64,000 nucleotides of DNA from NCBI GenBank assembly GCA_902531985.1, contig CACAGG010000001.1, forward strand, positions 2,505-66,504, read 5' to 3'. The notes below the pieces were generated by a model. The model saw only the letters and a program-made list of their open reading frames with translations, made no database searches and was not told the DNA's origin. This stretch comes from an uncultured marine group III euryarchaeote. GTDB lineage: Archaea > Thermoplasmatota > Poseidoniia > MGIII > CG-Epi1. A program made the translations under genes and the position numbers. Position 1 is the first letter of the stretch; each line of letters opens with the position of its first letter. This document shows, piece after piece, positions 10,079-63,749 of this stretch.

Positions 10079-10154
10079 GGTCCCGTGGGGTAGCTTGGCA
10101 TCCTTGTACCTTGGGGTGGTATAGACTCCAGTTCAAATCTGGGCGGGACCACCA
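10079..10154 (+). tRNA. tRNA-Pro (anticodon GGG), CCA encoded
   Basis: Hand-folded cloverleaf: acceptor GGTCCCG/CGGGACC, D-stem GGGT/ATCC, anticodon stem GTACC/GGTAT with loop TTGGGGT, T-arm TCCAG-TTCAAAT-CTGGG, then ACCA. Confidence 0.85.
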
Positions 10155-20808: not shown

Positions 20809-23484
20809 GTGAGAGAAAAAAATATGAAAAAAGGATACAGGCAACAGTTACCAGATAGGGACCCTCAAGAAACTGAAGAATGGATTGATTCTATCGACTC
20901 GATTATTGAAATTAAGGGTGAAGAGCGAGCTAGATACTTACTACAGACATTAATCAGGGAAGCTAGAGATCGAAACATTGCAATTCCCTTAATGACCAAT
21001 AGCCCTTACGTAAACACTATACCTCCTGAATCTGAACCTGAATATCCTGGAAATGAAGTTATTGAGAAGAAGATTAGACGTATAATTAGATGGAACGCTG
21101 CAATGATGGTTTCAAAGGCTAACAAGAACTTTGCAGGTTTAGGTGGCCACATCTCTACTTACGCCTCTGCAGCAAGTTTGTATGAAGTAGGATTCCATCA
21201 TTTCTTCAAAGGAAAGAACAATGGAATTGGTGATTTCATTTACTACCAAGGTCATGCATCTCCAGGCATATATTCTAGAGCTTTTCTAGAAGGAAGGCTA
21301 GATCAAGGTAATCTTGACCATTTTAGGAGAGAAGCCTTCACAGACGGTCTATCTAGTTATCCGCACCCTAGATTGATGCCAGAATTTTGGGAATTCCCAA
21401 CTGTTTCGATGGGATTAGGACCTACTAATGCAATATATCACGCTAGATTTCTCCGCTACCTAAAAGAAAGGGGCATTGCAGATACTAGTAACTGTAGAGT
21501 CTGGGCATTCTTGGGAGATGGGGAATGTGATGAGCCTGAAACTTTACATGCTTTACATTTAGCTCATAGAGAAAAATTAGATAATCTTACATTTGTCATA
21601 AATTGTAATTTACAAAGATTAGATGGGCCAGTAAGAGGAAACGGTAAAATAATCCAAGAATTAGAAGCAATATTTAGAGGATCAGGATGGAACGTTCTCA
21701 AAGTTTTGTGGGGCAGAGACTGGGATGAACTACTCCAAAATGACGAGATGGGCCATTTGCTGCGTAAAATGGAAAAAACCGTTGACGGTGATTACCAGAC
21801 CTTAGCTGCATCTACTGGAGATTACATAAGAGAAAATTTCTTTGGGCCTGAGCCTGAGCTACAAAAATTAGTCGAAAATCTGGATGACAAAACGCTTACT
21901 AAATTACGAAGGGGAGGTCACGACTCTACAAAAATATTTTCAGCCTACAAAGAAGCTACCGAGCATAAAGGTCAGCCATCTGTAGTTTTAGCAAAGACTG
22001 TCAAAGGATGGGCTTTAGGGAAAGGGTTTGAAGCTAGAAACATGACTCATCAGAAAAAATCTCTTGAGAAATCTGATTGGGAATACTTTAGAGACTTGCT
22101 TGAAATACCTTTCACTGATTCCGAATTAGAAGATATGCCTTACTACAAACCTGCTTCAGATAGTGAGGAAATTCTATACCTAAGAGAGCGTAGAGAAAAA
22201 TTAGGAGGGTATTTACCATCAAGAAAAGCAACCTACAGCGGATTTCAGATGCCTAAGAAGGAAGTATTTTCAGAGTTTGATAAAGGAACTCCAGAAGAGC
22301 AACAAGTTTCAACGACTATGGCTTTTGTAAGATTGCTCCGTAACTTAATGAAGGATGAGAAAATTGGCAATCTAATTGTGCCTATTGTTCCTGATGAGGC
22401 TAGAACTTTTGGTATGGAAGCTTTGTTTACTGAATTTAAAATATATAATGCTCAAGGTCAAATTTACACACCTGTTGACTCGCAACTCTTGTTAAGTTAT
22501 AAAGAATCTGAGAGTGGTCAAATATTAGAAGAAGGAATTTCTGAAGCTGGAGCTATGAGTAGTTTTACAGCCGCAGGAACGGCTTATTCAACTGTTGGCA
22601 AACCAACTATACCATTTTACATTTATTATTCAATGTTCGGATTTCAAAGAGTAGGTGATCAGATATGGTGCGCTGCAGATTCAAGGGCAAAGGGGTTCCT
22701 TTTAGGAGCAACTGCAGGTCGAACCACACTAAATGGAGAAGGATTACAACATCAAGATGGACATAGTCTTCTAACCTCATCAACAGTACCAAATTGTGTT
22801 TCATATGATGCTGCATTCGCATATGAAATTGGAATCATAGTCAAGGAAGGCCTAAGACGGATGTATGAAAATAATGAAGATATATTCTATTACTTAACAC
22901 TCTATAATGAAAATTACTCTATGCCTTCTATACCTAAAAATAGTGAAGAAGGAATAATCAAAGGGATATATAAATTCAAATCAGTAACTAAACCACAGGT
23001 TAGATTAATAGGAAGTGGTTCTATAATGCAACAAGTTTTAGAAGCTGACAAAATACTATCAAAATTAGGAATAAAGTCTGAGATATGGAGTGCAACAAGT
23101 TTTGGAGGGCTTCGTAGAGATGCTATGGAATGTGAAAGATGGAATCTTTTGAATCCTTCTAAAAAACAAAAAATACCCTACATCAGTAAAATAATGAGCA
23201 ATAGTGAATTAGTTTCTATAGCTGCAACCGACCATATGAAAGCAGTTCCAGATATGATTAAAGGCTGGGTTCCTGGAAATTACGTTTCCTTAGGTACTGA
23301 TGGATTTGGAAGAAGCGACACAAGAGAAAGTCTTAGAAAATTCTTTGAAATAGATGCAAACAATATCGCTGCTGCTGCAATAAGTACTTTACAAACTGAA
23401 GGGAAAATGACTAAAGCAAAAGCTGAAAAAGCTCTAAAGACTTTGGATGTTGATTTTGAAGCTCCAGATCCTTCTAAAAACTAA
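20809..23484 (+). CDS. aceE: pyruvate dehydrogenase E1 component, homodimeric (AceE type)
   Basis: 891 aa with an AceE-like N-terminus (...EWIDSIDSIIE...ARYLL...) and a ThDP-binding region (GDGECDEPE). Confidence 0.85.
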   Translation: MREKNMKKGYRQQLPDRDPQETEEWIDSIDSIIEIKGEERARYLLQTLIREARDRNIAIPLMTNSPYVNTIPPESEPEYPGNEVIEKKIRRIIRWNAAMMVSKANKNFAGLGGHISTYASAASLYEVGFHHFFKGKNNGIGDFIYYQGHASPGIYSRAFLEGRLDQGNLDHFRREAFTDGLSSYPHPRLMPEFWEFPTVSMGLGPTNAIYHARFLRYLKERGIADTSNCRVWAFLGDGECDEPETLHALHLAHREKLDNLTFVINCNLQRLDGPVRGNGKIIQELEAIFRGSGWNVLKVLWGRDWDELLQNDEMGHLLRKMEKTVDGDYQTLAASTGDYIRENFFGPEPELQKLVENLDDKTLTKLRRGGHDSTKIFSAYKEATEHKGQPSVVLAKTVKGWALGKGFEARNMTHQKKSLEKSDWEYFRDLLEIPFTDSELEDMPYYKPASDSEEILYLRERREKLGGYLPSRKATYSGFQMPKKEVFSEFDKGTPEEQQVSTTMAFVRLLRNLMKDEKIGNLIVPIVPDEARTFGMEALFTEFKIYNAQGQIYTPVDSQLLLSYKESESGQILEEGISEAGAMSSFTAAGTAYSTVGKPTIPFYIYYSMFGFQRVGDQIWCAADSRAKGFLLGATAGRTTLNGEGLQHQDGHSLLTSSTVPNCVSYDAAFAYEIGIIVKEGLRRMYENNEDIFYYLTLYNENYSMPSIPKNSEEGIIKGIYKFKSVTKPQVRLIGSGSIMQQVLEADKILSKLGIKSEIWSATSFGGLRRDAMECERWNLLNPSKKQKIPYISKIMSNSELVSIAATDHMKAVPDMIKGWVPGNYVSLGTDGFGRSDTRESLRKFFEIDANNIAAAAISTLQTEGKMTKAKAEKALKTLDVDFEAPDPSKN

Positions 23485-36997: not shown

Positions 36998-37462
36998 ATG
37001 ATTGGAGAATCTGCACCAAATTTTACATTGAAAAATACGGGAAAAGAGGATGTGTCACTAAGTGATTACAAAGGAAAAACTGTCATCCTAGCGTTCTACC
37101 CTGGTGCATTTACAGGAGTTTGTGATAATGAGATGTGTGCTTTTCAAGATAATTTCAGCAAATTAGGAAAGTCTAATGCTGCAGTTATTGGCATAAGCGT
37201 GGATTCACCATGGGCTAACGCTGAATTTGCTAGTAAGTATAATCTAGAATTCGAACTATTGTCTGATATTGATAGGGAAGTCGTTGAGGCCTATGATGCT
37301 AAGTTTGTAGGGCTTGGCGGAGTTGAAGGATATGTAAGCGCAAATAGAGTCGTGATTGTTATTGATAAAGATGGAATCATTAAGCATCGCTGGGTAGCTG
37401 AGAATCCAGGCGTTGAACCGAATTATGATTCTATAGTTGAATTTGCTGAATCATTAAATTAG
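36998..37462 (+). CDS. peroxiredoxin (BCP/PrxQ-like)
   Basis: ...FYPGAFTGVCDNEMC... peroxidatic Cys context. 154 aa. Confidence 0.8.
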   Translation: MIGESAPNFTLKNTGKEDVSLSDYKGKTVILAFYPGAFTGVCDNEMCAFQDNFSKLGKSNAAVIGISVDSPWANAEFASKYNLEFELLSDIDREVVEAYDAKFVGLGGVEGYVSANRVVIVIDKDGIIKHRWVAENPGVEPNYDSIVEFAESLN

Positions 37463-37469
37463 TAATTAA

Positions 37470-40400
37470 TCAGAATAAACTTAAACTGTCTGAATTAGCC
37501 ATTCTATCCAATGTCTCAGTAACAAGAGAATCGGGTCCAAGAACTTCTTTAGCTTGAAGGAACATACACCTAATTTCATTTCTCTCAAGACCTTCTAACG
37601 AAGGCATAATATTTGATCTAATAACTCTGTCCAAAGCAAGCTCTGGCCCATATTTCTTAATCGAATTAAACATGGTAACCATAGAATCAATGACTAGGGC
37701 AGGACCTATCTTACGGAATGTACGAACTCCTACTGCTACTTCATCTCCTCTATTCGGTGCCTCGCTAGGCTCCAAGAATTTTACTAATTTCTCGTGACAC
37801 TTATACATGCTCCCATCATCGTCATAAAAGTCAAATTTACGACTTGGGAAATGACGGCACTTATCACCAAATTTCCAAAGATCATCACCTTCCGGCCTCT
37901 CAGGGACTAAACCTAACTTCTTTAATTTGAAATAAACAAATACAGGCATTCTGTTATATTCGTCTTCAGGAATTGGAAGTCCAATTTCGACAAAAGCAAA
38001 ACGCCTCATCAATGCGAAACCCACATTGAAAAGCGTATTTTTATCTTGAGTATTCATAGTTCCAATAATTCTGAACTCTGGTGGCATCATGAAAGGAGCT
38101 CCTCCCGTTTCTTTGTGAGTCAATAATGGTTGCTTATCCCTATATTCAAAAACTGTGAACAATTTACCAAAAGCTTCATCAATATTAGCACGATTAAATT
38201 CGTCAATTACCAAGTAATGTGGTTTACCTGTTTCAACAATTGACTTTTCACAAAGCTTAGCAGCTTCAGCTACATATCCATCTTTGAAATAATAACCACC
38301 AGAGTCATCAGGCGAAATGCCGCCAATAACATCAAAATTAGACCATTCTGCATTAGCCGTTACAATGGTGTAATTTGGGGCTTTGCTACCATTTGGTTGA
38401 TCAATTTCACCGCATAATTTTGTCAATAATATATTAGACAAAGCCGTCTTACCAGTACCAGGTTCCCCAAATAGCATTATATTCTTTCCAGATGTCAAAT
38501 GGGTTATAACTTCGTCAACTGTTTCAGGAGTTGTTGAATAGGCTTCTGCAATTTCATGGAAATCAACTTCATAATCTACCTGTATTGCAGGTCTAATTTT
38601 TACAGAATGATCGACACTATCCATCATTGTCTTCTCAACTAATTGTTGATCAGGAGTATGCTCAGTAGTATGTTTCAGTTCAATCTGGAACTCTTCTCCG
38701 TATTCCTGCATCAAAAATTCCATTGCCGAATCGACTGACCACTCAGGCATTGCCTTCTGTCCGCCTTCTACTGTAGGTGCAAAAGGATCTTCACGATTTG
38801 GCATTGCTCTATCTGCTGCCAAAGACATTTCTCTTAGTCTTTGTGAACCAAATTTATAAACTAACCAAAATCCAACTGCAGTCACTAAAGCAGACAAAAG
38901 GAGATTGAAGTTGGCATCACCATCCATCTCATCCATTTCAACCCCGCCTAAAGCAATTGGTAAAATGAAAGTTGCAAATAAAGAAAGAATTCCTACAGCA
39001 AATATAACAAAATAAGCAACGCCTATTGAACCTTGCTCACCTCTCCTTTTGTTGTAAAATGAATAGAGACCCACTGAAGATATACCTAAAGCCATCACAG
39101 TAAGAGTCAAATCATTTTGATCTAAACCAAATCCTGAACCTTCATTAGTTAGCATATTGTAGGCAAAAATCAAGTATTGAAGAACTAAACCTGAAATAAT
39201 CATAGTCATATATTTGGCCTCATCAAGATCATTTATTCTTGTACTAGATACTAACCAATTTCCAATACCGATGAAAAGGAAAGTCGCGGCTAGCAACATT
39301 ATTGTACTGTCCTGACCTGCGCTAAAATCAACAAATGTAACATTAATGTCTTTGTGAGGCGTATCTAACAATTGACAAGCCCCCCTGTCATCTTCCTCCT
39401 TATTAGAAAGATCTAAAAGGAACATCTGAAGTTCGGAAACATAATCATCATCATATTTTCCATTACCATTTGTATCTGTAAATGATTCAGGCTTATTGTA
39501 TTTTGAATCACCGTTACCGTCTTCCCATTCTTCCCCTTCTCCTTCATCCCAAAGTCCGTTTGAGGTCCCATTTTCATTAGGCAGATCCGTCCAATCTAAC
39601 CTACCATTATTTTCAGAACCATCCTCATCTGGAGGAACATCACCTTCGGAAGTATAATTCCCGTCTTTATCTATATCTACGGACTCTACACCGTCAAGGC
39701 CAAAATCATCAAATTCATCCCATACGTCCCGTAAGCCATTATTCTCGCCTTCATCATTAGTACCAACAATTCCATCAAATCCATAATCGTTTAGTGGTTC
39801 GAACGGTATTGGTTTACTGCCATATGGGTTTTCACAAACCGCATAAGGCCCTTGGGCATAATTTAAGAATACCGAAGAAAGTAAAAGCGCTATAACTATT
39901 ACAAAGAAATAAAAATTCAAAGTCACGGGTTCGTCTAAAGGCCTTTCCAGAGAAATACGTGCGAAAAGAACTGAAGTTGCAACTATCAGACATACTGTTG
40001 CAGCAAAACCTAAAGTAAGAGGTATTGCAAAAATTAGTTGATCCAAAAAACCTCCATAAACTACAAACAATAATATCTGACTAAATGCAAAAATTATCAA
40101 AGGCAGAGTAAGTGATGTATTTGGTATAGAATTGTAAAGATAAAAAGCGATAACCAAAAATAAACCATTTAAGGCAAATAGTGCAAGCCCAGTGCCAAAA
40201 GTAATGTTAACTGGACAACCATACCTTTCTTCATCATCAATGTATCCACTACGATTAGTATCTGTTATGTAATAATCATTAGTAGTAGTAAATGACTCCT
40301 GCAAATCTTCATTAAACACTGACTTCTGCTCCTCTTCTTTATATTCTACATATCTCTGCTTATCCCACATCTCACAATTAAACGGTTCACCACTAAATGG

Positions 40401-40946
40401 ATCTGAGGTAGGTGTAGCTTCAGAATCATAAGGCGGGCCATTTTGTGCGTAAATAGGTTCCCCGTCACCATTAACATCAAGTCCTCTTGGAACGGTCATT
40501 GCAGTTACTCCGAGAACACTGAAAAAGATTAAAATTGCAATAAAAAGAGCTACAAGAGGACCTACATAGGTTAATTTACCGTCACTTTTGAAGAACTTGT
40601 CAAGTGTAGATGTGATTTTTTCCGTAAACTTTCCAAGGTCTCCGATAAAAGACAGATACTTGCGAAAATCAAACCCACTCGAAGAGCCTGCTTCTACGGG
40701 GATTTCAGTTCCTGCCAATGCTTCTTCGATTTCCTTTTCTTCATCAGTCAATTCATTGGTTTCGCTTTGCTCTTCCTCAATTTCTTCAATTTTGTCCTCG
40801 ATAGGCGGAATTTCAGAAGCTGAAGCTTCTGTAGAGGTATCCTGGGCATCTACACCTGAAATTTCTAAGTCTGAACCACAAATGGCACATGCTAATTCAG
40901 CATCATTATCCTCCTCATATTGGCAGACTGGGCAGACCTTCATCAA
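37470..40946 (-). CDS. large polytopic membrane protein: N-terminal zinc ribbon, Asp-rich Ca-binding-like extracytoplasmic loops, C-terminal McrB-type AAA+ (AAA_5) NTPase domain
   Basis: 1158 aa. N-terminal CPVCQ...CAICGS, then an acidic linker and multiple TM blocks. Loops carry DVNGDGEP / DKDGNYTSEGD / DTNGNGKYDDD repeats. The C-terminus has Walker A LFGEPGTGKTA, Walker B + McrB signature LVIDEFNRANIDEAFGKLF, and ...IIGTMNT...ALMRRFAFVEI. Confidence 0.7.
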   Translation of the reverse strand: MMKVCPVCQYEEDNDAELACAICGSDLEISGVDAQDTSTEASASEIPPIEDKIEEIEEEQSETNELTDEEKEIEEALAGTEIPVEAGSSSGFDFRKYLSFIGDLGKFTEKITSTLDKFFKSDGKLTYVGPLVALFIAILIFFSVLGVTAMTVPRGLDVNGDGEPIYAQNGPPYDSEATPTSDPFSGEPFNCEMWDKQRYVEYKEEEQKSVFNEDLQESFTTTNDYYITDTNRSGYIDDEERYGCPVNITFGTGLALFALNGLFLVIAFYLYNSIPNTSLTLPLIIFAFSQILLFVVYGGFLDQLIFAIPLTLGFAATVCLIVATSVLFARISLERPLDEPVTLNFYFFVIVIALLLSSVFLNYAQGPYAVCENPYGSKPIPFEPLNDYGFDGIVGTNDEGENNGLRDVWDEFDDFGLDGVESVDIDKDGNYTSEGDVPPDEDGSENNGRLDWTDLPNENGTSNGLWDEGEGEEWEDGNGDSKYNKPESFTDTNGNGKYDDDYVSELQMFLLDLSNKEEDDRGACQLLDTPHKDINVTFVDFSAGQDSTIMLLAATFLFIGIGNWLVSSTRINDLDEAKYMTMIISGLVLQYLIFAYNMLTNEGSGFGLDQNDLTLTVMALGISSVGLYSFYNKRRGEQGSIGVAYFVIFAVGILSLFATFILPIALGGVEMDEMDGDANFNLLLSALVTAVGFWLVYKFGSQRLREMSLAADRAMPNREDPFAPTVEGGQKAMPEWSVDSAMEFLMQEYGEEFQIELKHTTEHTPDQQLVEKTMMDSVDHSVKIRPAIQVDYEVDFHEIAEAYSTTPETVDEVITHLTSGKNIMLFGEPGTGKTALSNILLTKLCGEIDQPNGSKAPNYTIVTANAEWSNFDVIGGISPDDSGGYYFKDGYVAEAAKLCEKSIVETGKPHYLVIDEFNRANIDEAFGKLFTVFEYRDKQPLLTHKETGGAPFMMPPEFRIIGTMNTQDKNTLFNVGFALMRRFAFVEIGLPIPEDEYNRMPVFVYFKLKKLGLVPERPEGDDLWKFGDKCRHFPSRKFDFYDDDGSMYKCHEKLVKFLEPSEAPNRGDEVAVGVRTFRKIGPALVIDSMVTMFNSIKKYGPELALDRVIRSNIMPSLEGLERNEIRCMFLQAKEVLGPDSLVTETLDRMANSDSLSLF

Positions 40947-41064
40947 TTGTTTACAGAATGATGGGTTAAAATGTTAACTGAAAAAAAAGAAACAGGCAAA
41001 ACAATAACTCTGAGAGGAGAAAAAAATAAACTTTAAATAGAACCTCAAACAAAAACCTATCCCT

Positions 41065-43452
41065 ATGAAAGAAGAACTGCAGCAGATTCAGGCAGTAGCC
41101 ATTGTGACATTTTTGTGCGTTCTAATTTCTATACATAGTACAGGAGAATACGGTGAGTGGTTTGAAATAAGTGGAACCAAACAAGATATAATTAACCCTG
41201 GCAATCCTGAAAACGGTACTGAAATAAAAACTTTTGAGTATAGTTATCACTCTGGCTATTATACACAATACGAAGACGGGCAAACTGATAAACAAAACTA
41301 TGATAGTGCAAATTGCGGTTCTTGTACTGAAAAATCCAGTGTACTTCAAAATGTTACTAGACTAGCATACGGTACGGCGATTTTAGCATTAGGTGTTGCT
41401 TACATGGCAAGAGATTCTATCAATCACTTACATAAAAAAAATCTAAGAAGATCTCTCAGCAATCTAAAATATTCTGCAATACTTGTTTTGATTTTAGGTC
41501 TTACAACAGGATCCATGTTTTACATGGGTTGGACTGAGGCACTCGTTAGAGATGAAGCTACTATTAATGGCGACTTAGGTGAGCAACAAGTTTTAGGATG
41601 TATTGGACAGCCGGGATTTTTGACATTTTACGGAGGCGATGCCTGCTTAGAGTATGTTAACTCTCTTGAGCAGGGTGAAGCTGATCTACTAAGTTCAAGA
41701 GTTAATCCCATTGAGTGGGGACCAGGCATAGGATTTTTCGTTGTAATATTAGGTTCTCTAATTACAGGGGGAGGTACGCTGTATATTTTGGGTAGTATCG
41801 ATGAAGAATGGCAAGCTATTCTAAAAAGACAAGACCTAATTGAAAGGCAACAAAAAATACAGGATGGAGAAATTGAAAAGAATAAAGATTTATTAGATGA
41901 ATTTGATGAAACTGAACAAAAATTAAAGGATGCTGAAAGAAGAATCGAAGAAGTAAGGACTAAAGCTGATGAAATTGACTATCAAGGAATTGACGACTTA
42001 GATCAAGAACTAGACAGACTTACTGCATTAAACCAAAGTGTTGAAACTCTTAACAATTCTTTAGACAGCAAATTAAAGACTGCTCGAATAGCTACATCTG
42101 AAGTTGAGAAAAGGGCTAGAATGGCTGAAAAAGAATTAAATGATGATTTAGCAGCAAAAACAAATTTGGAAAACGAAATTGAGGATTTGAGAGGTAAACA
42201 TGAGAATGATATGCGGCTTAGCGATAGAATGACTCGAGAAATTAGCTCACTAAGAAAGATGACTGAAGATGCTGATGAGAGAGCATTAAAGGCCGAAAAG
42301 AAACTCAAATTGGAAAAACCTGACACAATTAATGCATTAGAGTCATACGATTCTGTAAAAGCTTCTTACGACAAAACTGTTGACGAAAAAAATAATCTTG
42401 AAAAAGAAATAATGGAATATGAGCAACAAACATTAGAGGCAAATGAAAGGGAAAAAGCCGCAGATTCTGAACGCAAGGAAGCTGCACAAAGAAGAAAAGA
42501 CCTAGACAGGGAAGTGAAACTTATGGAGAAAAACAAAAAAAGAATTAACGACAAATTCACAACACTAACTACTGGATTGGAAAAAGCAAAAAAAGATTTA
42601 GCAGGCGCTCGAGAAAAGGCCGCCGTAACTCTGAGTGAACTTGATTTGGAAAGAGAGACTATTGTCGAATTGCAGCAAGAAACTGAAAAATTTAGAACAA
42701 AGGAAAGTGAAATTGTCGAACTTACAGATTCTTTAAAAGAATTACAAGGACAAGTTGGAAACCAGAAAGAAACTAACAGTGGAATTGAAAAAGAATTAAA
42801 GGAAGAGACTAACCGCAAAAAGAAGACTGAAAAAGAATTAAAATCATTAGAGAAAGCATCTGAACAAGTAAGTAAAGTCATGGAAAGTTTGAAGAAACAA
42901 TTTGATGCTGCAAAAGATGAACTGAATATCGCAATGGATGATCGAAATAAAGCTGAAAGATTGCTGGAAACTGAAAAAACTGAACACGAAAAATTGAAAG
43001 AAGATCTAGAGTTTTTACAAGGCGCTACAATAGGAAGTGAGGAAGAAACTGAACGTAAAATAAAAGCCATGGAAATAGAAACTCCTAAAGCCAAAGAAGA
43101 AACTAGAGAGATGAAAGAAGAAGCTGATAGCTTGGCTGAACAAAACCAAGATTTAGAAGCTAAAATCAAAGAAGCTCGATTGGGAACTATTGAAGAGGCT
43201 ACCTCTGAAAATCAAGAAACTGCTGAAGCAAGTTCTGAAGAAAGTATCGCAACAATAGGCTCGAGTATAATAGTCAAAAATTTAGCAAAAGAAACTGAAC
43301 ATAACTTCCAACTGGTAAATCCTGATCAAGCAGATCCTAAAACAGGTAAATTACCTTTAACTAATCCTATAGCAAAGGCACTAGAAGGAACTAAAGAAGG
43401 CGATGAAGTTAGTGTTGGACCAAATACTTTTAAGGTCATAAAATTAAATTAA
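41065..43452 (+). CDS. membrane-anchored long coiled-coil protein with GreA/GreB C-terminal (FKBP-like) domain
   Basis: 795 aa. N-terminal signal/TM plus ~4 TM. About 500 aa of E/K-rich heptad coiled coil. The C-terminal ...NFQLVNPDQADPKTGKLPLTNPIAKALEGTKEGDEVSVGPNTFKVIKL aligns to the E. coli GreA C-terminus (...[51 protein letters not shown]). Confidence 0.65.
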   Translation: MKEELQQIQAVAIVTFLCVLISIHSTGEYGEWFEISGTKQDIINPGNPENGTEIKTFEYSYHSGYYTQYEDGQTDKQNYDSANCGSCTEKSSVLQNVTRLAYGTAILALGVAYMARDSINHLHKKNLRRSLSNLKYSAILVLILGLTTGSMFYMGWTEALVRDEATINGDLGEQQVLGCIGQPGFLTFYGGDACLEYVNSLEQGEADLLSSRVNPIEWGPGIGFFVVILGSLITGGGTLYILGSIDEEWQAILKRQDLIERQQKIQDGEIEKNKDLLDEFDETEQKLKDAERRIEEVRTKADEIDYQGIDDLDQELDRLTALNQSVETLNNSLDSKLKTARIATSEVEKRARMAEKELNDDLAAKTNLENEIEDLRGKHENDMRLSDRMTREISSLRKMTEDADERALKAEKKLKLEKPDTINALESYDSVKASYDKTVDEKNNLEKEIMEYEQQTLEANEREKAADSERKEAAQRRKDLDREVKLMEKNKKRINDKFTTLTTGLEKAKKDLAGAREKAAVTLSELDLERETIVELQQETEKFRTKESEIVELTDSLKELQGQVGNQKETNSGIEKELKEETNRKKKTEKELKSLEKASEQVSKVMESLKKQFDAAKDELNIAMDDRNKAERLLETEKTEHEKLKEDLEFLQGATIGSEEETERKIKAMEIETPKAKEETREMKEEADSLAEQNQDLEAKIKEARLGTIEEATSENQETAEASSEESIATIGSSIIVKNLAKETEHNFQLVNPDQADPKTGKLPLTNPIAKALEGTKEGDEVSVGPNTFKVIKLN

Positions 43453-60152: not shown

Positions 60153-63100
60153 ATGGGGCCCAATCTAAAGATTATCACTTTCTTACTGGCGCTTACTGGG
60201 GTGATATTTTTTACTGAAAATTCAACTGCCGAAATGGATCCTTTTATAGACGATGTGTTGTACTCTAAAGAGGGTTCTGATACTAAAGTTTTAGTCCAGA
60301 GTGGAAGAGACAACGCTACCTTCTACAAATACTTAATTTTGGATGATTTTTCAGACGCTCCTGAGAATTGGGCATCTAAAAATTTTAATGATTCAAGTTG
60401 GTCCAATGGAGCTGCGCCGTTTGGTGATAGAAGATACAACAACGTAGATCCTAATGTAGACTGGGACACTTCAGGAAGCTCACCCTATAACAATGATATA
60501 ATATTAATAAGACACAAATTTCAATTAAATGGAATAGTAACTTCAGCTGAAATTGATGTAGCTTTTGCAAATTATTGCACTCCTTACCTAAATGGTAATT
60601 TGATATATGATGAAAGAGGAGGGAATTCACATGGTGCTGAATACTGGAATGATGATGGGACTGAAGGAATATCCTCTAGTTCTTTTGAACCGGGAGAAAA
60701 TGTTTTAGCTGTTTATGGAAGAGATTATGTATATGGTTCTGGAAATCAAAATAGACAATGGTTAGACCTTCAAATCACGGCCCAAGTTTTTGAATCTACT
60801 AATGAATCTATTATATTTGGTGACTCAGTAATTGTAGCAATAACTGGTGGAAACGAAGGGGATGAAAGTGTTGATGAATATTTCATTAATGTTACTTCGA
60901 ACAACAAAACAATTAAAACATTCTATTATGACGCTATACCTGCTTACGGTTATGGTTTATCATGGCTAGAATGGAAGCCTGAAATAATTGGCTTAAACCA
61001 ATTAACTGTAAATGTAACTTGTAACTGTAGCGATATCAATAATACAAATAATTTACAAGTATTAAATCTAACAACTGTAATTTATTCATTAGAGACTACA
61101 CATGATGAGGAATTGCTAATTGTCAATCAAAGCAGACTTTTTAACCGATTAATCCAAGTTAAAAATACTGGAAATATTACTGACAATGTTACACTATCTA
61201 TTGAAGACGAAACACTTGGAAATTGGAATGCACAATTTACTCCAAATAATTTCGAAATTGAAGCTGGTGAAACGAAAGACGTACTATTGACGGCAGTTGC
61301 CCCTGAATCTCTAGAAGATGGCTACTACAATTTAACATTTAGAACGCAAAGTCAATATAATTATGTGACTACAGCAACATTATTGCAAAGAGGCTCTTAT
61401 GGAGGCGTAGACTGGAAATGGATCAATTCAACTACCCATGAAGAACTATATGATAATATCAATTGGACGAAATTAAACTTCAATGATACTGATTGGAAAA
61501 ACGGCAGTACTCCTTTTGGAGACTCGGATGTTGATGGAATAGATTACAATACTTTCTGGGAAGGTGACAACTATGCTTATTTCCGTCACATTATTGATAT
61601 TCCAGACATTAATCTATACGAGGGAGGGTTCATGAGCGTAAATGTAGCAACAAATAATTACGGTGACTATTACATCAATGGAGCCTATGTTTTCGGAGAT
61701 ATGGATATAGGGGATGGGCATGGAGCTGAATATTGGAATGATGAGTTTCAAATTTACTTGAATTATCTTAACCAAGGCCCTAATATCATTGCAAGCGTTG
61801 TTTCTAATCCGCAAAACACACAGTGGTTTGATGAAGAAATACTAATTACTTTTCCACAAGCTAATCTTTGGAACTACAAAAGTGAAATCAGTAGTATACC
61901 TTTATATTTGGATTCAACTCCCCCTACTACTAGAGTAATAGGAGAAGGATTTTATCGTAATAGCTCTACATTTGAGGTTAAGTGGAAAAGTATTTCCAAC
62001 TATGATGATTTATCTGGATATTACATTTATTATTTAGAAAAGGATGGTGGAAATTTAGGCGAATGGACCCTATTAGGATTTTACACTAATGAATCTACTA
62101 ACTTTACAGGCCAAGGAAACTTAACCTATCGATTCAAATCAATAGCCATAGACAATAATGGAAATGTCGAGAACAAAGGAACATATGATACCGAGATGAG
62201 AGTTGATTTAATTACTCCAAAGTCTACATTATGGATTGTTGAAGGGAATATCGAATTTACAAATCTCGATGGAATTACTATCCAATGGAAAGCGAACAAC
62301 ACAATGGACATACAGGCGTATTTGATAGAATACAGAGATTCAAAAAATCAAACTTGGAAAGATTTTGGAGCATTTACTTCCACTGGAGAATATTGGTTTT
62401 CACCTGAAGAAGATGAGACTTTTGAAATTAGATCCCGCACAATAGATTATGCTGGCAATAAAGAAATTAAACTGGAAAGTGACATCATTGTCACGTTTGA
62501 TAGATTAAAACCAGAAGTAAAACTTAATTCTCTCAATCAATTAACTGGTTCTGATCAACTGATTATTAGCATTGAAAATAGAAGTGAAGGCTTGGATAAT
62601 ATTGAATTAGAGTATGCAAGACTTTTGGAAGATGTTGAGGATGTATTAGAATGGAGAGAAGTTGAATCTGAGTGGCAGAATGAGGAGATCTTGATGAGTC
62701 CTCTCATTGATGGATACACTTATTATTTTAGAATAAACCCCTCTGATTTGGCAGGTAATAAGTGCCCAAGAGAGCCTTACGAATATCAAGTATTTATCAG
62801 CTCCAATCAAACTGAAAAGCTGACTCTGCCAGTAATGCCACTAAAACCAATTATGATTGGGAAAATAAGAAACATAGAGATGTCTGCTGATGAAAATGGA
62901 GATGGTATTTTTGAAAAAACTCTTGAAGAATATACTGGTATTGATTTAAGAGCGATGAAAGCAAACCAGTACTGGGTAAATTATTTGACTGGTGAAATCA
63001 TTTTTGGTGATGGACAAGACGGATATATGCCACCTAATAATTCATCATTAAATCTAGCATTTAATGGATATGATTTGGTAACGACGGTTGATCTGAAACT

Positions 63101-63749
63101 TCCGGAACCTATTGAGCAAATCGAATACGTAATAGAAGATAGAAATAATGTGACTATTACGTGGAAAAAGCCTTTGGATGCAACCAGCTTTATAGTTGAA
63201 AGTAAAAAAAATTTTAGTATGCCTTGGATTTCTGTGACTACTATAGATATCAAAGACAATAATGAACCAAGCTACAAAGCTACAAATTTGAGTGATGGAT
63301 TCCATTATTATCGAGTGATTTCTGTGGATAGAATGGGCTATACTAATCCAAACATGATAAATGAACACATTAGAGTTATAATTGAAGCTGAAGTTAATAG
63401 TGTAATTGAGGCTGAACCAAAGCAAACTGAAGATTTGTATTTGTATGGTCTTGTCGGAGTGGTATTAGGTTCAATTGCAATATACGGCGCCTCACGATTA
63501 CTTAAAAGTGAAACTGATGTTGAAGTCGCAAGCAGACCTATGCTAATTCCAGTTGATAATACTTCAGAAGAGCAAACCACTATAACTGAAAGTGAGGTAC
63601 TAGAAACATTTAGTGTAGTGCCTGGAAGCCAATTTTCAAGACAATTAATGTATGTGTGTGAAAAAGGATGTATGAAGGAATTTGAAGTAGAAGGGGAAGA
63701 TGAGGAAGTTATGTGTCCTCATTGCGGAACAATAGGGGATTTAATTTAG
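60153..63749 (+). CDS. large surface (S-layer/adhesin-like) glycoprotein with signal peptide, internally duplicated beta-rich domains, C-terminal TM anchor and cytoplasmic zinc-ribbon tail
   Basis: 1198 aa. N-terminal MGPNLKIITFLLALTGVIFFTENSTA. Dozens of N-x-S/T sequons. A duplicated ~200-aa unit (..W.NG..PFGD...Y.NG......G..HGAEYWND.. at aa ~90-170 and ~445-525). TM LYLYGLVGVVLGSIAIYGASRLL. Tail C..C...18...CPHCG. Confidence 0.6.
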   Translation: MGPNLKIITFLLALTGVIFFTENSTAEMDPFIDDVLYSKEGSDTKVLVQSGRDNATFYKYLILDDFSDAPENWASKNFNDSSWSNGAAPFGDRRYNNVDPNVDWDTSGSSPYNNDIILIRHKFQLNGIVTSAEIDVAFANYCTPYLNGNLIYDERGGNSHGAEYWNDDGTEGISSSSFEPGENVLAVYGRDYVYGSGNQNRQWLDLQITAQVFESTNESIIFGDSVIVAITGGNEGDESVDEYFINVTSNNKTIKTFYYDAIPAYGYGLSWLEWKPEIIGLNQLTVNVTCNCSDINNTNNLQVLNLTTVIYSLETTHDEELLIVNQSRLFNRLIQVKNTGNITDNVTLSIEDETLGNWNAQFTPNNFEIEAGETKDVLLTAVAPESLEDGYYNLTFRTQSQYNYVTTATLLQRGSYGGVDWKWINSTTHEELYDNINWTKLNFNDTDWKNGSTPFGDSDVDGIDYNTFWEGDNYAYFRHIIDIPDINLYEGGFMSVNVATNNYGDYYINGAYVFGDMDIGDGHGAEYWNDEFQIYLNYLNQGPNIIASVVSNPQNTQWFDEEILITFPQANLWNYKSEISSIPLYLDSTPPTTRVIGEGFYRNSSTFEVKWKSISNYDDLSGYYIYYLEKDGGNLGEWTLLGFYTNESTNFTGQGNLTYRFKSIAIDNNGNVENKGTYDTEMRVDLITPKSTLWIVEGNIEFTNLDGITIQWKANNTMDIQAYLIEYRDSKNQTWKDFGAFTSTGEYWFSPEEDETFEIRSRTIDYAGNKEIKLESDIIVTFDRLKPEVKLNSLNQLTGSDQLIISIENRSEGLDNIELEYARLLEDVEDVLEWREVESEWQNEEILMSPLIDGYTYYFRINPSDLAGNKCPREPYEYQVFISSNQTEKLTLPVMPLKPIMIGKIRNIEMSADENGDGIFEKTLEEYTGIDLRAMKANQYWVNYLTGEIIFGDGQDGYMPPNNSSLNLAFNGYDLVTTVDLKLPEPIEQIEYVIEDRNNVTITWKKPLDATSFIVESKKNFSMPWISVTTIDIKDNNEPSYKATNLSDGFHYYRVISVDRMGYTNPNMINEHIRVIIEAEVNSVIEAEPKQTEDLYLYGLVGVVLGSIAIYGASRLLKSETDVEVASRPMLIPVDNTSEEQTTITESEVLETFSVVPGSQFSRQLMYVCEKGCMKEFEVEGEDEEVMCPHCGTIGDLI

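Follow-up and report, generated by a model that had tools for sequence, protein, structure and literature searches.

The Gre factors, Gfh1 and Rnk of bacteria dock by their C-terminal domain (Gre-C) onto the rim-helix coiled coil beside the NTP-entry (secondary) channel of RNA polymerase (RNAP), and archaea use TFS-type factors for transcript cleavage and at this channel. Docking onto the RNAP beta-prime coiled coil, which is described as universally conserved, is the only documented role of Gre-C (PMC8195603, PMC3132773), and according to PMC9501531 rim helices are also present at the NTP-entry channel of archaeal RNAP. A precedent for the reuse of Gre-C as an RNAP-recruiting module outside the Gre factors is given by the TPR-GreA/B-C-PIN family, which is sporadic in archaea (PMC8195603). 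Here we analyzed a stretch of 64 kb (the window) from an uncultured Marine Group III (MGIII) euryarchaeote, contig CACAGG010000001.1. One gene of the window (41065-43452, + strand) encodes, from an ATG start and with orthologues in related genomes, a membrane-anchored stalk protein of 795 aa with a Gre-C head, here called GreCC. It is divergently paired with a gene for a McrB-like membrane GTPase. We tentatively propose that the two products form a module which would hold RNAP at the membrane.

Gre-C head, membrane anchor and stalk of GreCC

The Gre-factor C-terminal domain (GreA/B-C, FKBP-like) occupies residues 732-795 (43258-43449, +). The Pfam model PF01272 (GreA_GreB C-terminal domain) matched residues 728-787 with 45.2 bits (E 9.5e-12), and the last 79 aa alone reached 50.7 bits, against a gathering cutoff of 26.9 bits. 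All 18 diverse family members examined (18/18) matched this model, and NCBIfam GreA models matched the same C-terminal region. A phmmer search of the PDB with GreCC found E. coli GreA (1grj, E 2.4e-6) and also Gfh1, and an hhalign comparison of the 18-member GreCC profile with residues 63-156 of E. coli GreA gave 96.5% probability and 31% identity over 90 columns. The AlphaFold2 (AF2) model of the last 171 aa had a pLDDT of about 75-79 across the domain. With this model, Foldseek placed only Gre-family chains (GreA, GreB, Gfh1, Rnk 3bmb, and 2pn0) at positions 1-14 of the PDB matches (E 6e-6 to 3.5e-4), and trigger factor and FKBPs came only at E of at least 0.19. These comparisons confirmed that the last ~65 residues of GreCC are, by profile and predicted fold, a genuine and specific Gre-factor C-terminal domain, as an earlier note made from the bare sequence of the window had claimed; the similarity is not limited to an FKBP-like hairpin.

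The hallmark "SPIAxALxG" of Gre factors is kept in GreCC as an invariant N-P-(I/L)-(A/G)-K-x-L-x-G. When the last 164 aa served as query in a word-indexed search for homologues, fragments from this MGIII family were the only matches, and a bacterial donor did not appear among them. The earlier note had called a Gre-C fold unexpected in an archaeon. This was overstated, since sporadic archaeal GreA/B-C proteins were already reported (PMC8195603) and some members of the present family already carry the automatic labels "GreA/GreB family elongation factor" or "GreA/GreB C-terminal domain-containing protein" in NCBI, JGI or UniRef. Our literature search found no study discussing these MGIII proteins.

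The searches located relatives of GreCC at 26 loci of species-representative genomes and at 76 loci of metagenomes, the nearest being MGIII metagenome-assembled genomes (MAGs) and single cells, and no relative was found in the viral contigs scanned. With a profile of residues 1-291, an exhaustive search of 1.84 billion cluster representatives yielded 29 proteins: two full-length clusters, with fragments and a few distant stand-alone membrane domains as the rest. The first cluster is epipelagic MGIII, with full-length orthologues 62-94% identical to the GreCC of the window. The second is 33-35% identical, 795-799 aa long with almost no indels, and comes from GC-rich contigs including a MGIII CG-Bathy2 MAG. 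As judged from these searches, the family is restricted to MGIII (CG-Epi, CG-Bathy). One 66%-identical copy (L016, CAUYZR010000042.1) is labelled "Candidatus Thalassarchaeaceae" (MGIIb), while all other carriers are MGIII; this contig is possibly mislabelled or mis-binned.

The N-terminal membrane domain (41065-41799, +; residues 1-245) was delimited by hydropathy, the positive-inside rule, AF2 and Foldseek. Hydropathy and AF2 gave four transmembrane (TM) helices, at residues 8-24, 98-115, 135-156 and 218-245, instead of the about five counted before. The extracellular loops (25-97 and 157-217) are beta-rich and form beta-sheets in the AF2 model, and C179 and C194 are invariant in the family. 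The loop between TM2 and TM3 (116-134) holds 6 K/R in 19 residues, which would put the N terminus, this loop and all that follows TM4 inside the cell. Topology prediction from hydropathy, the positive-inside rule and AF2 thereby places the stalk and the Gre-C head in the cytoplasm. The pLDDT of the membrane domain was 75-88, with a mean of 69 for the full-length model. A Foldseek search of the PDB with the full model found TARP gamma-5, claudin-3/4/9, GARLH4 and DUOXA1 (E 5e-5 to 1e-3, TMt 0.54-0.63), and no claudin-type Pfam model matched GreCC at E <= 1. The claudin/TARP-like tetraspan fold of the anchor is thus predicted at the fold level only. Distant stand-alone versions of this membrane domain are fused to zinc ribbons (P0112, P0115, P0116).

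TM4 runs unbroken into the cytoplasmic alpha-helical stalk (41800-43197, +; residues 246-711), which is E/K-rich and was defined by AF2, heptad periodicity and conservation. The AF2 helices are 222-303, 306-396, 423-654, 662-669 and 673-711, and a variable linker (712-733) lies between the stalk and the Gre-C domain. The long membrane-tethered stalk suggested before is therefore matched by AF2 and topology, with ~465 residues of cytoplasmic helix ahead of Gre-C. Heptad periodicity of hydrophobic residues was significant in most 56-aa windows between 241 and 660 (z 2.6-7.7), but some charged stretches gave no heptad signal (for example 437-492, z = 1.0). About 46% of the stalk residues are charged, and the very charged stretches could be single alpha-helix (SAH), not coiled coil. 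At full extension the stalk could be as long as ~70 nm. Self-comparison found no internal repeats in it.

A conserved hinge or break in the stalk (42253-42330, +; residues 397-422) is non-helical in AF2, with pLDDT below 50 at 393-419, and contains invariant alignment columns. It holds the invariant P419 ("EKP"), the sole invariant Pro/Gly of the stalk, and just before it stands the invariant motif LSDRMTREISSLR (385-397).

Constraint differs strongly along the protein. Within the epipelagic clade, mean pairwise identity was 0.44-0.47 in the extracellular loops, 0.77-0.80 in the stalk, 0.82 in TM4 and 0.81 in Gre-C. Between the two clades Gre-C was the most conserved part (0.49), followed by TM4 (0.48) and the membrane-proximal stalk (0.44), and the stalk and linker flanking Gre-C kept only 0.12-0.30 identity.

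The McrB-like partner and the conserved gene pair

The partner gene (37470-40946, -) encodes 1158 aa, or 1157 aa from ATG 40943, and was characterized by its open reading frame (ORF), Pfam, NCBIfam, PDB and hydropathy. In its product a zinc ribbon at the N terminus and an acidic linker precede a membrane part of about 10 TM helices that bears two ectodomains; the McrB-type AAA+ domain comes next, in the cytoplasm, and a C-terminal domain follows it. It matched Pfam AAA_5 with 70 bits and NCBIfam McrB with 67 bits, and E. coli McrB (6hz4) was found in the PDB at E 7e-20. In the GTPase core (37977-38546, -), which alignment with the McrB of E. coli places at residues ~801-990, Walker A reads GEPGTGKT, Walker B reads VIDEFNRAN, the NxxD signature reads MNTQD, and ALMRRF also occurs; the McrB-type motifs (Walker A/B, NxxD) are taken as defined in PMC11090510. 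From its intact motifs, the partner is a canonical and apparently active GTPase.

Identity in the core is 96% among epipelagic MGIII and falls to 83% against CG-Bathy. One of the two ectodomains (39312-39848, -; residues ~367-545) is hypervariable, acidic and D/N/G-rich, with a gap fraction of 63% and an identity of 0.42. It has DxDxDG-like (calcium-loop-like) motifs and accounts for the length range of 993-1310 aa among the partner orthologues. By alignment, both proteins are composed of a constrained cytoplasmic part and a fast-evolving outer face.

No McrC family was found in Pfam, NCBIfam and PADLOC scans of GreCC; the other neighbour, a 154-aa ORF at 36998-37462, was not profile-scanned. 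Against PADLOC-DB, GreCC had no match and the partner had only weak matches of P-loop level (E 7.5e-5 to 1.6e-3).

Related modules of zinc ribbon, membrane domain and McrB-like domain were found in other archaeal contigs outside MGIII (L108:4258-9173 and L109:3552-9784). The AAA+ domain of L108 (GC content 36%, a contig of 1.6 Mb) is 67% identical to that of the window, and that of L109 (GC content 55%) is 49% identical. In both contigs an unrelated same-strand protein of 553-700 aa follows the McrB-like gene, and no Gre-C protein is present. We considered this protein as a McrC candidate, and it gave no significant match in Pfam, NCBIfam, PADLOC or PDB. The "split" genes of L108 are probably long-read frameshifts, because a fused member of 964 aa is in the same 90% cluster. 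The L109 module also has a CxxC-rich protein and adjoins the RNAP genes Rpo2 and Rpo5. On this distribution, GreCC is a MGIII-specific partner of a somewhat wider membrane McrB-like family.

GreCC and the McrB-like gene were divergently adjacent in 76 of the 77 loci that had at least 600 bp of upstream sequence, and the single non-adjacent locus is a partial match of 35 residues. The pair is single-copy and syntenic, amid housekeeping genes. In epipelagic MGIII, Elp3 and M3 peptidase are also conserved around it, and most of the conservation of the pair in this clade could be ordinary synteny. In CG-Bathy the pair with its spacer of ~90-190 bp is kept although the flanks differ: one of them holds an OPT transporter, the opposite one a response regulator and histidine kinase. 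Because the pairing persists in 76/77 loci and in a clade of 33% identity with different flanking genes, the two genes are, on this comparative evidence, one module, which is congruent with the earlier suggestion that the divergent pair may form one system. The response regulator and histidine kinase of CG-Bathy lie directly downstream of the Gre-C gene (L113:941-1894 and 1-948; L104:10548-12945), where M3 peptidase lies in the epipelagic clade.

The intergenic spacer is 118 bp from the TTG start at 40946, as counted before, or 121 bp from ATG 40943. The TATA-like elements noticed in it were found as two boxes conserved in 66 distinct intergenic regions across both clades. The BRE/TATA-like box of GreCC, AAACTTTAAATAG (41028-41040, +), is ~25-37 nt upstream of its ATG, and the TATA-like element of the partner (40966-40980, -; + strand letters TTAAAATGTTAACTG) is ~23-37 nt upstream of ATG 40943. 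With a box spacing of ~25-35 nt from each start codon, the spacer fits back-to-back archaeal promoters with leaderless or near-leaderless mRNAs. The conserved position of the TATA-like box and the ATG after it suggest that ATG 40943 is the likelier start of the partner, not the TTG 40946 of the ORF finder. Long antisense or overlapping ORFs at 42003-42326 (-), 42366-43169 (-) and 40588-40977 (+) are S/F/L-rich mirrors of a coding strand rich in E, K and D; almost certainly none of them is a gene.

Proposed function and alternative readings

We propose, with a probability of about 0.4, that the rim helices of archaeal RNAP are the docking site of the Gre-C head, and that the module tethers, recruits or sequesters RNAP at the membrane under regulation or remodelling by the McrB-like GTPase. 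RNAP is the most likely ligand of the head because rim-helix docking is the sole documented activity of Gre-C and archaeal RNAP has rim helices. The claudin-like anchor with its four TM helices would carry a small fast-evolving extracellular beta domain, and TM4 would continue into the conserved stalk of ~465 residues with Gre-C at its tip. As a finger domain is lacking, RNAP would be tethered, recruited or sequestered at the membrane, or the access of TFS would be blocked, and cleavage would not be stimulated. Regulation or remodelling of the capture of RNAP would fall to the McrB-like GTPase, as a hexamer held in the membrane beside the stalk. Claudin/TARP-like tetraspans are typically auxiliary subunits on the TM domains of larger membrane proteins (TARP with AMPAR, GARLH4 with GABA(A)R, DUOXA1 with DUOX). 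This habit gives a plausible route by which the two products could associate, the anchor perhaps contacting the TM domain of the partner laterally. The conserved proximal stalk and the hinge are candidate elements for engaging the GTPase ring in place of McrC.

Several points weigh against this proposal. The RNAP of archaea is not the same as that of bacteria. Conservation of the stalk goes far beyond the need of a passive tether and suggests further partners. Confidence in the AF2 models, made from alignments of 18-37 sequences of one lineage, is modest (pTM 0.30-0.37). An invariant Asn (N767, in both clades) stands where Gre factors have their RNAP-contact serine, the motif being otherwise retained. 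In MtbGre this serine is S127 of "SPxx(R/K)xLxG", equivalent to the S of the "SPIA" motif of E. coli GreA, and its change to E abolishes RNAP binding (PMC3132773). Recognition between Gre factors and RNAP is species-specific even within bacteria (PMC3132773). McrB-type GTPases normally require McrC (PMC11090510), and the scans of the adjacent GreCC gave no McrC.

In its most elaborate version the proposal would make the pair a GTPase-driven machine unique to MGIII, in which a horizontally acquired bacterial Gre-C on a ~70-nm stalk captures RNAP at its rim helices and, by sequestering it or organising it at the membrane, directly couples an extracellular sensor surface, claudin-like or Ca-binding-like, to transcription. 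We consider this version doubtful.

The head may instead have been repurposed and no longer bind RNAP, docking on its own stalk or hinge or on another coiled coil, so that the pair would be a structural, cytoskeletal or envelope-organising machine. Gre-C is known to bind the tip of a coiled coil, and a long coiled coil, invariant at its hinge, is part of GreCC itself. The replacement of the key serine by Asn agrees with such a change, as do the strongly conserved sequence and length of the stalk, the claudin-like anchor, and a family-specific invariant loop, VKNLxKETEH, without counterpart in Gre. However, the canonical motif is otherwise kept and is under the strongest constraint in the protein, and we know of no documented non-RNAP partner of any Gre-C domain. 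We regard this alternative as rather unlikely.

In an antiviral or abortive-infection module, the ectodomains or the zinc ribbon of the McrB-like protein would sense infection and Gre-C would capture RNAP, so that transcription is shut down. It is true that McrB-type GTPases are overwhelmingly components of Type IV restriction and defence (PMC11090510) and that Gre-C is present in predicted conflict systems (PMC8195603). Archaeal TFS4 is a precedent for infection-induced shutdown of RNAP, and TFS4 and Gfh1 are inhibitory channel binders. The extracellular parts of both MGIII proteins are fast-evolving and length-variable, as expected of surfaces exposed to viruses. Nevertheless, wherever a MGIII locus could be assessed, the pair was single-copy and sat at the same housekeeping site, no mobile elements occur in the flanks examined, and the cytoplasmic parts are extremely conserved (96% in the AAA+ core), whereas defence genes typically diversify. 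Within the scans of GreCC there is no adjacent nuclease, McrC or other effector, the 154-aa ORF at 36998-37462 not being profile-scanned, and the PADLOC results given above, with GreCC unmatched and the partner matched only at P-loop level, also speak against defence. An antiviral role is held to be unlikely.

The earlier note had read GreCC as an inflated version of the Gre layout of coiled-coil finger plus globular domain, and in that case it could be a true membrane-tethered transcript-cleavage or anti-arrest factor, with the helices at ~626-711 as the finger entering the NTP-entry channel. For this, phmmer aligned residues 13-141 of E. coli GreA (KLREELDFLKS versus KLKEDLEFLQG), and the hhalign homology reaches the end of helix 2 of the Gre N-terminal domain. 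There is also a second helix break (43027-43047, +; residues 655-661, TIGSEEE/D) in both AF2 models and in the alignment, followed by a conserved acidic cluster, G-S-E-E-(E/D). But only E659 is invariant in this cluster, which is a candidate loop or tip and not the Gre D-x-x-E motif; the D-x-x-E tip needed for cleavage stimulation (D41/E44 of E. coli GreA) has no aligned counterpart in GreCC. The model of the Gre N-terminal domain, GreA_GreB_N (PF03449), did not match full GreCC at E <= 1, nor any of the 18 C-terminal segments of the family at E <= 10. The GreA homology of the GreCC profile reaches no further than ~12 residues into the helix that closes the Gre N-terminal domain and leaves GreA 1-62 uncovered, and the low-rmsd superposition of the C-terminal AF2 model on Gre structures spans 74-83 columns of the C-terminal domain only. 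Because the N-terminal finger and the catalytic acidic tip are missing, GreCC is, as far as homology tells, neither a Gre factor nor a transcript-cleavage factor, and the inflated Gre layout is very improbable.

The weakest alternative, a chance or generic FKBP-like similarity of a short domain (~65 aa) in what would be merely a coiled-coil membrane protein, has a near-negligible probability given a Pfam score nearly twice the gathering threshold, the hhalign probability of 96.5%, Foldseek matches at E < 1e-3 to the Gre family only, and the presence of the domain in all members including the 33%-identity clade.

Were the most elaborate, GTPase-driven version of the proposal true, Gre-type docking on RNAP would be shown for the first time in Archaea, and a McrB-type GTPase would for the first time act without McrC on a target other than DNA. 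A lineage-wide archaeal Gre docking domain would show that this interface of RNAP is usable across the domains of life, and the pairing of a membrane stalk with a membrane McrB-like protein would point to tethering or sequestration of RNAP at the membrane, for which we know of no described archaeal precedent. The locus also adds a predicted claudin/TARP-like tetraspan fold in a prokaryote and a McrC-less, membrane-integrated branch of the McrB GTPases. Two soluble fragments, the Gre-C head and the AAA+ domain, make a compact testable pair from an uncultured and globally distributed plankton lineage.

Genomic context and comparison with known systems

The archaeal character of the window is matched with its genes for TFB, aIF2-gamma, a thermosome subunit, Elp3 and a PAC2 proteasome chaperone. 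A motif scan for the TFS signature R[ST]ADE gave no match in the window, which was the whole extent of the scan, the rest of the genome being outside it. The ORF at 20809-23484 (+) matched the PDH_E1_M and transketolase domains of a pyruvate dehydrogenase E1 component. This homodimeric E1 type is typically bacterial, and this gene would fit acquisition of genes from bacteria in the MGIII lineage. The ORF at 60153-63749 (+; 1198 aa) had no Pfam family at E <= 1e-5. ARAGORN identified a tRNA-Pro(GGG) at 10079-10154 (+), and Rfam at gathering threshold gave only the other two tRNAs.

The constituent domains, the database label of Gre-C and the proposed reuse of Gre-C outside Gre factors are already known. 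The combination of a claudin-like anchor, a giant stalk and Gre-C, its fixation at the order level, and its McrC-less membrane McrB partner appear to be undescribed in the literature and libraries searched.

GreCC shares with GreA/GreB, Gfh1 and Rnk the homologous PF01272 C-terminal domain, a long alpha-helix leading straight into it, and the motif (S/N)P-x-x-(K/R)-x-L-x-G. Unlike these proteins of ~160 aa, it has 795 aa, is an integral membrane protein of an archaeon and has an obligate McrB-like neighbour; unlike GreA/GreB, it has neither a GreA_GreB_N finger nor the D41/E44 tip, and it carries Asn in place of the key Ser. The TPR-GreA/B-C-PIN conflict proteins (Kaur et al. 2021, PMC8195603) are similar in the use of Gre-C as a presumed RNAP-docking module outside a Gre factor. 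In contrast to them, GreCC is membrane-anchored on a coiled-coil stalk, gave no TPR or PIN matches and has no variable effector or EAD domain, and it is a conserved core-genome gene where the former are patchy and stand-alone.

The McrBC Type IV, CoCoNuT and CoCoPALM systems (PMC11090510) resemble the pair in the McrB-type AAA+ GTPase with NxxD and in the association with a long coiled-coil protein, and CoCoPALM GTPases are likewise fused to TM and coiled-coil segments (PMC11090510). The MGIII pair differs from these systems as it is archaeal, lies in a housekeeping context and has no McrC/DUF2357 partner, nuclease or DNA-reader domain. Its GTPase is fused to a domain of ~10 TM helices with ectodomains, whereas the coiled coil is on a separate protein with Gre-C.

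TFS4 of Saccharolobus, an inhibitory paralogue of TFS, may be an analogue of GreCC in function. It is a channel-associated RNAP factor which lacks the catalytic acidic residues and represses RNAP rather than rescuing it. It differs from GreCC in its unrelated zinc-ribbon fold and its solubility; its binding sites are the lobe and jaw, and it enters the channel.

The anchor is comparable to the claudin/TARP/PMP22 proteins in its four TM helices, in having both termini inside, and in extracellular loops 1 and 2 forming a beta-sheet, as predicted in GreCC. Unlike the claudin superfamily, it has neither a sequence match nor the W-GLW-C-C signature, the comparison being of predicted with solved structures only; its host is prokaryotic and a huge cytoplasmic extension is fused to it. 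Like TARP, GARLH and DUOXA, GreCC may be an auxiliary subunit of a larger membrane protein.

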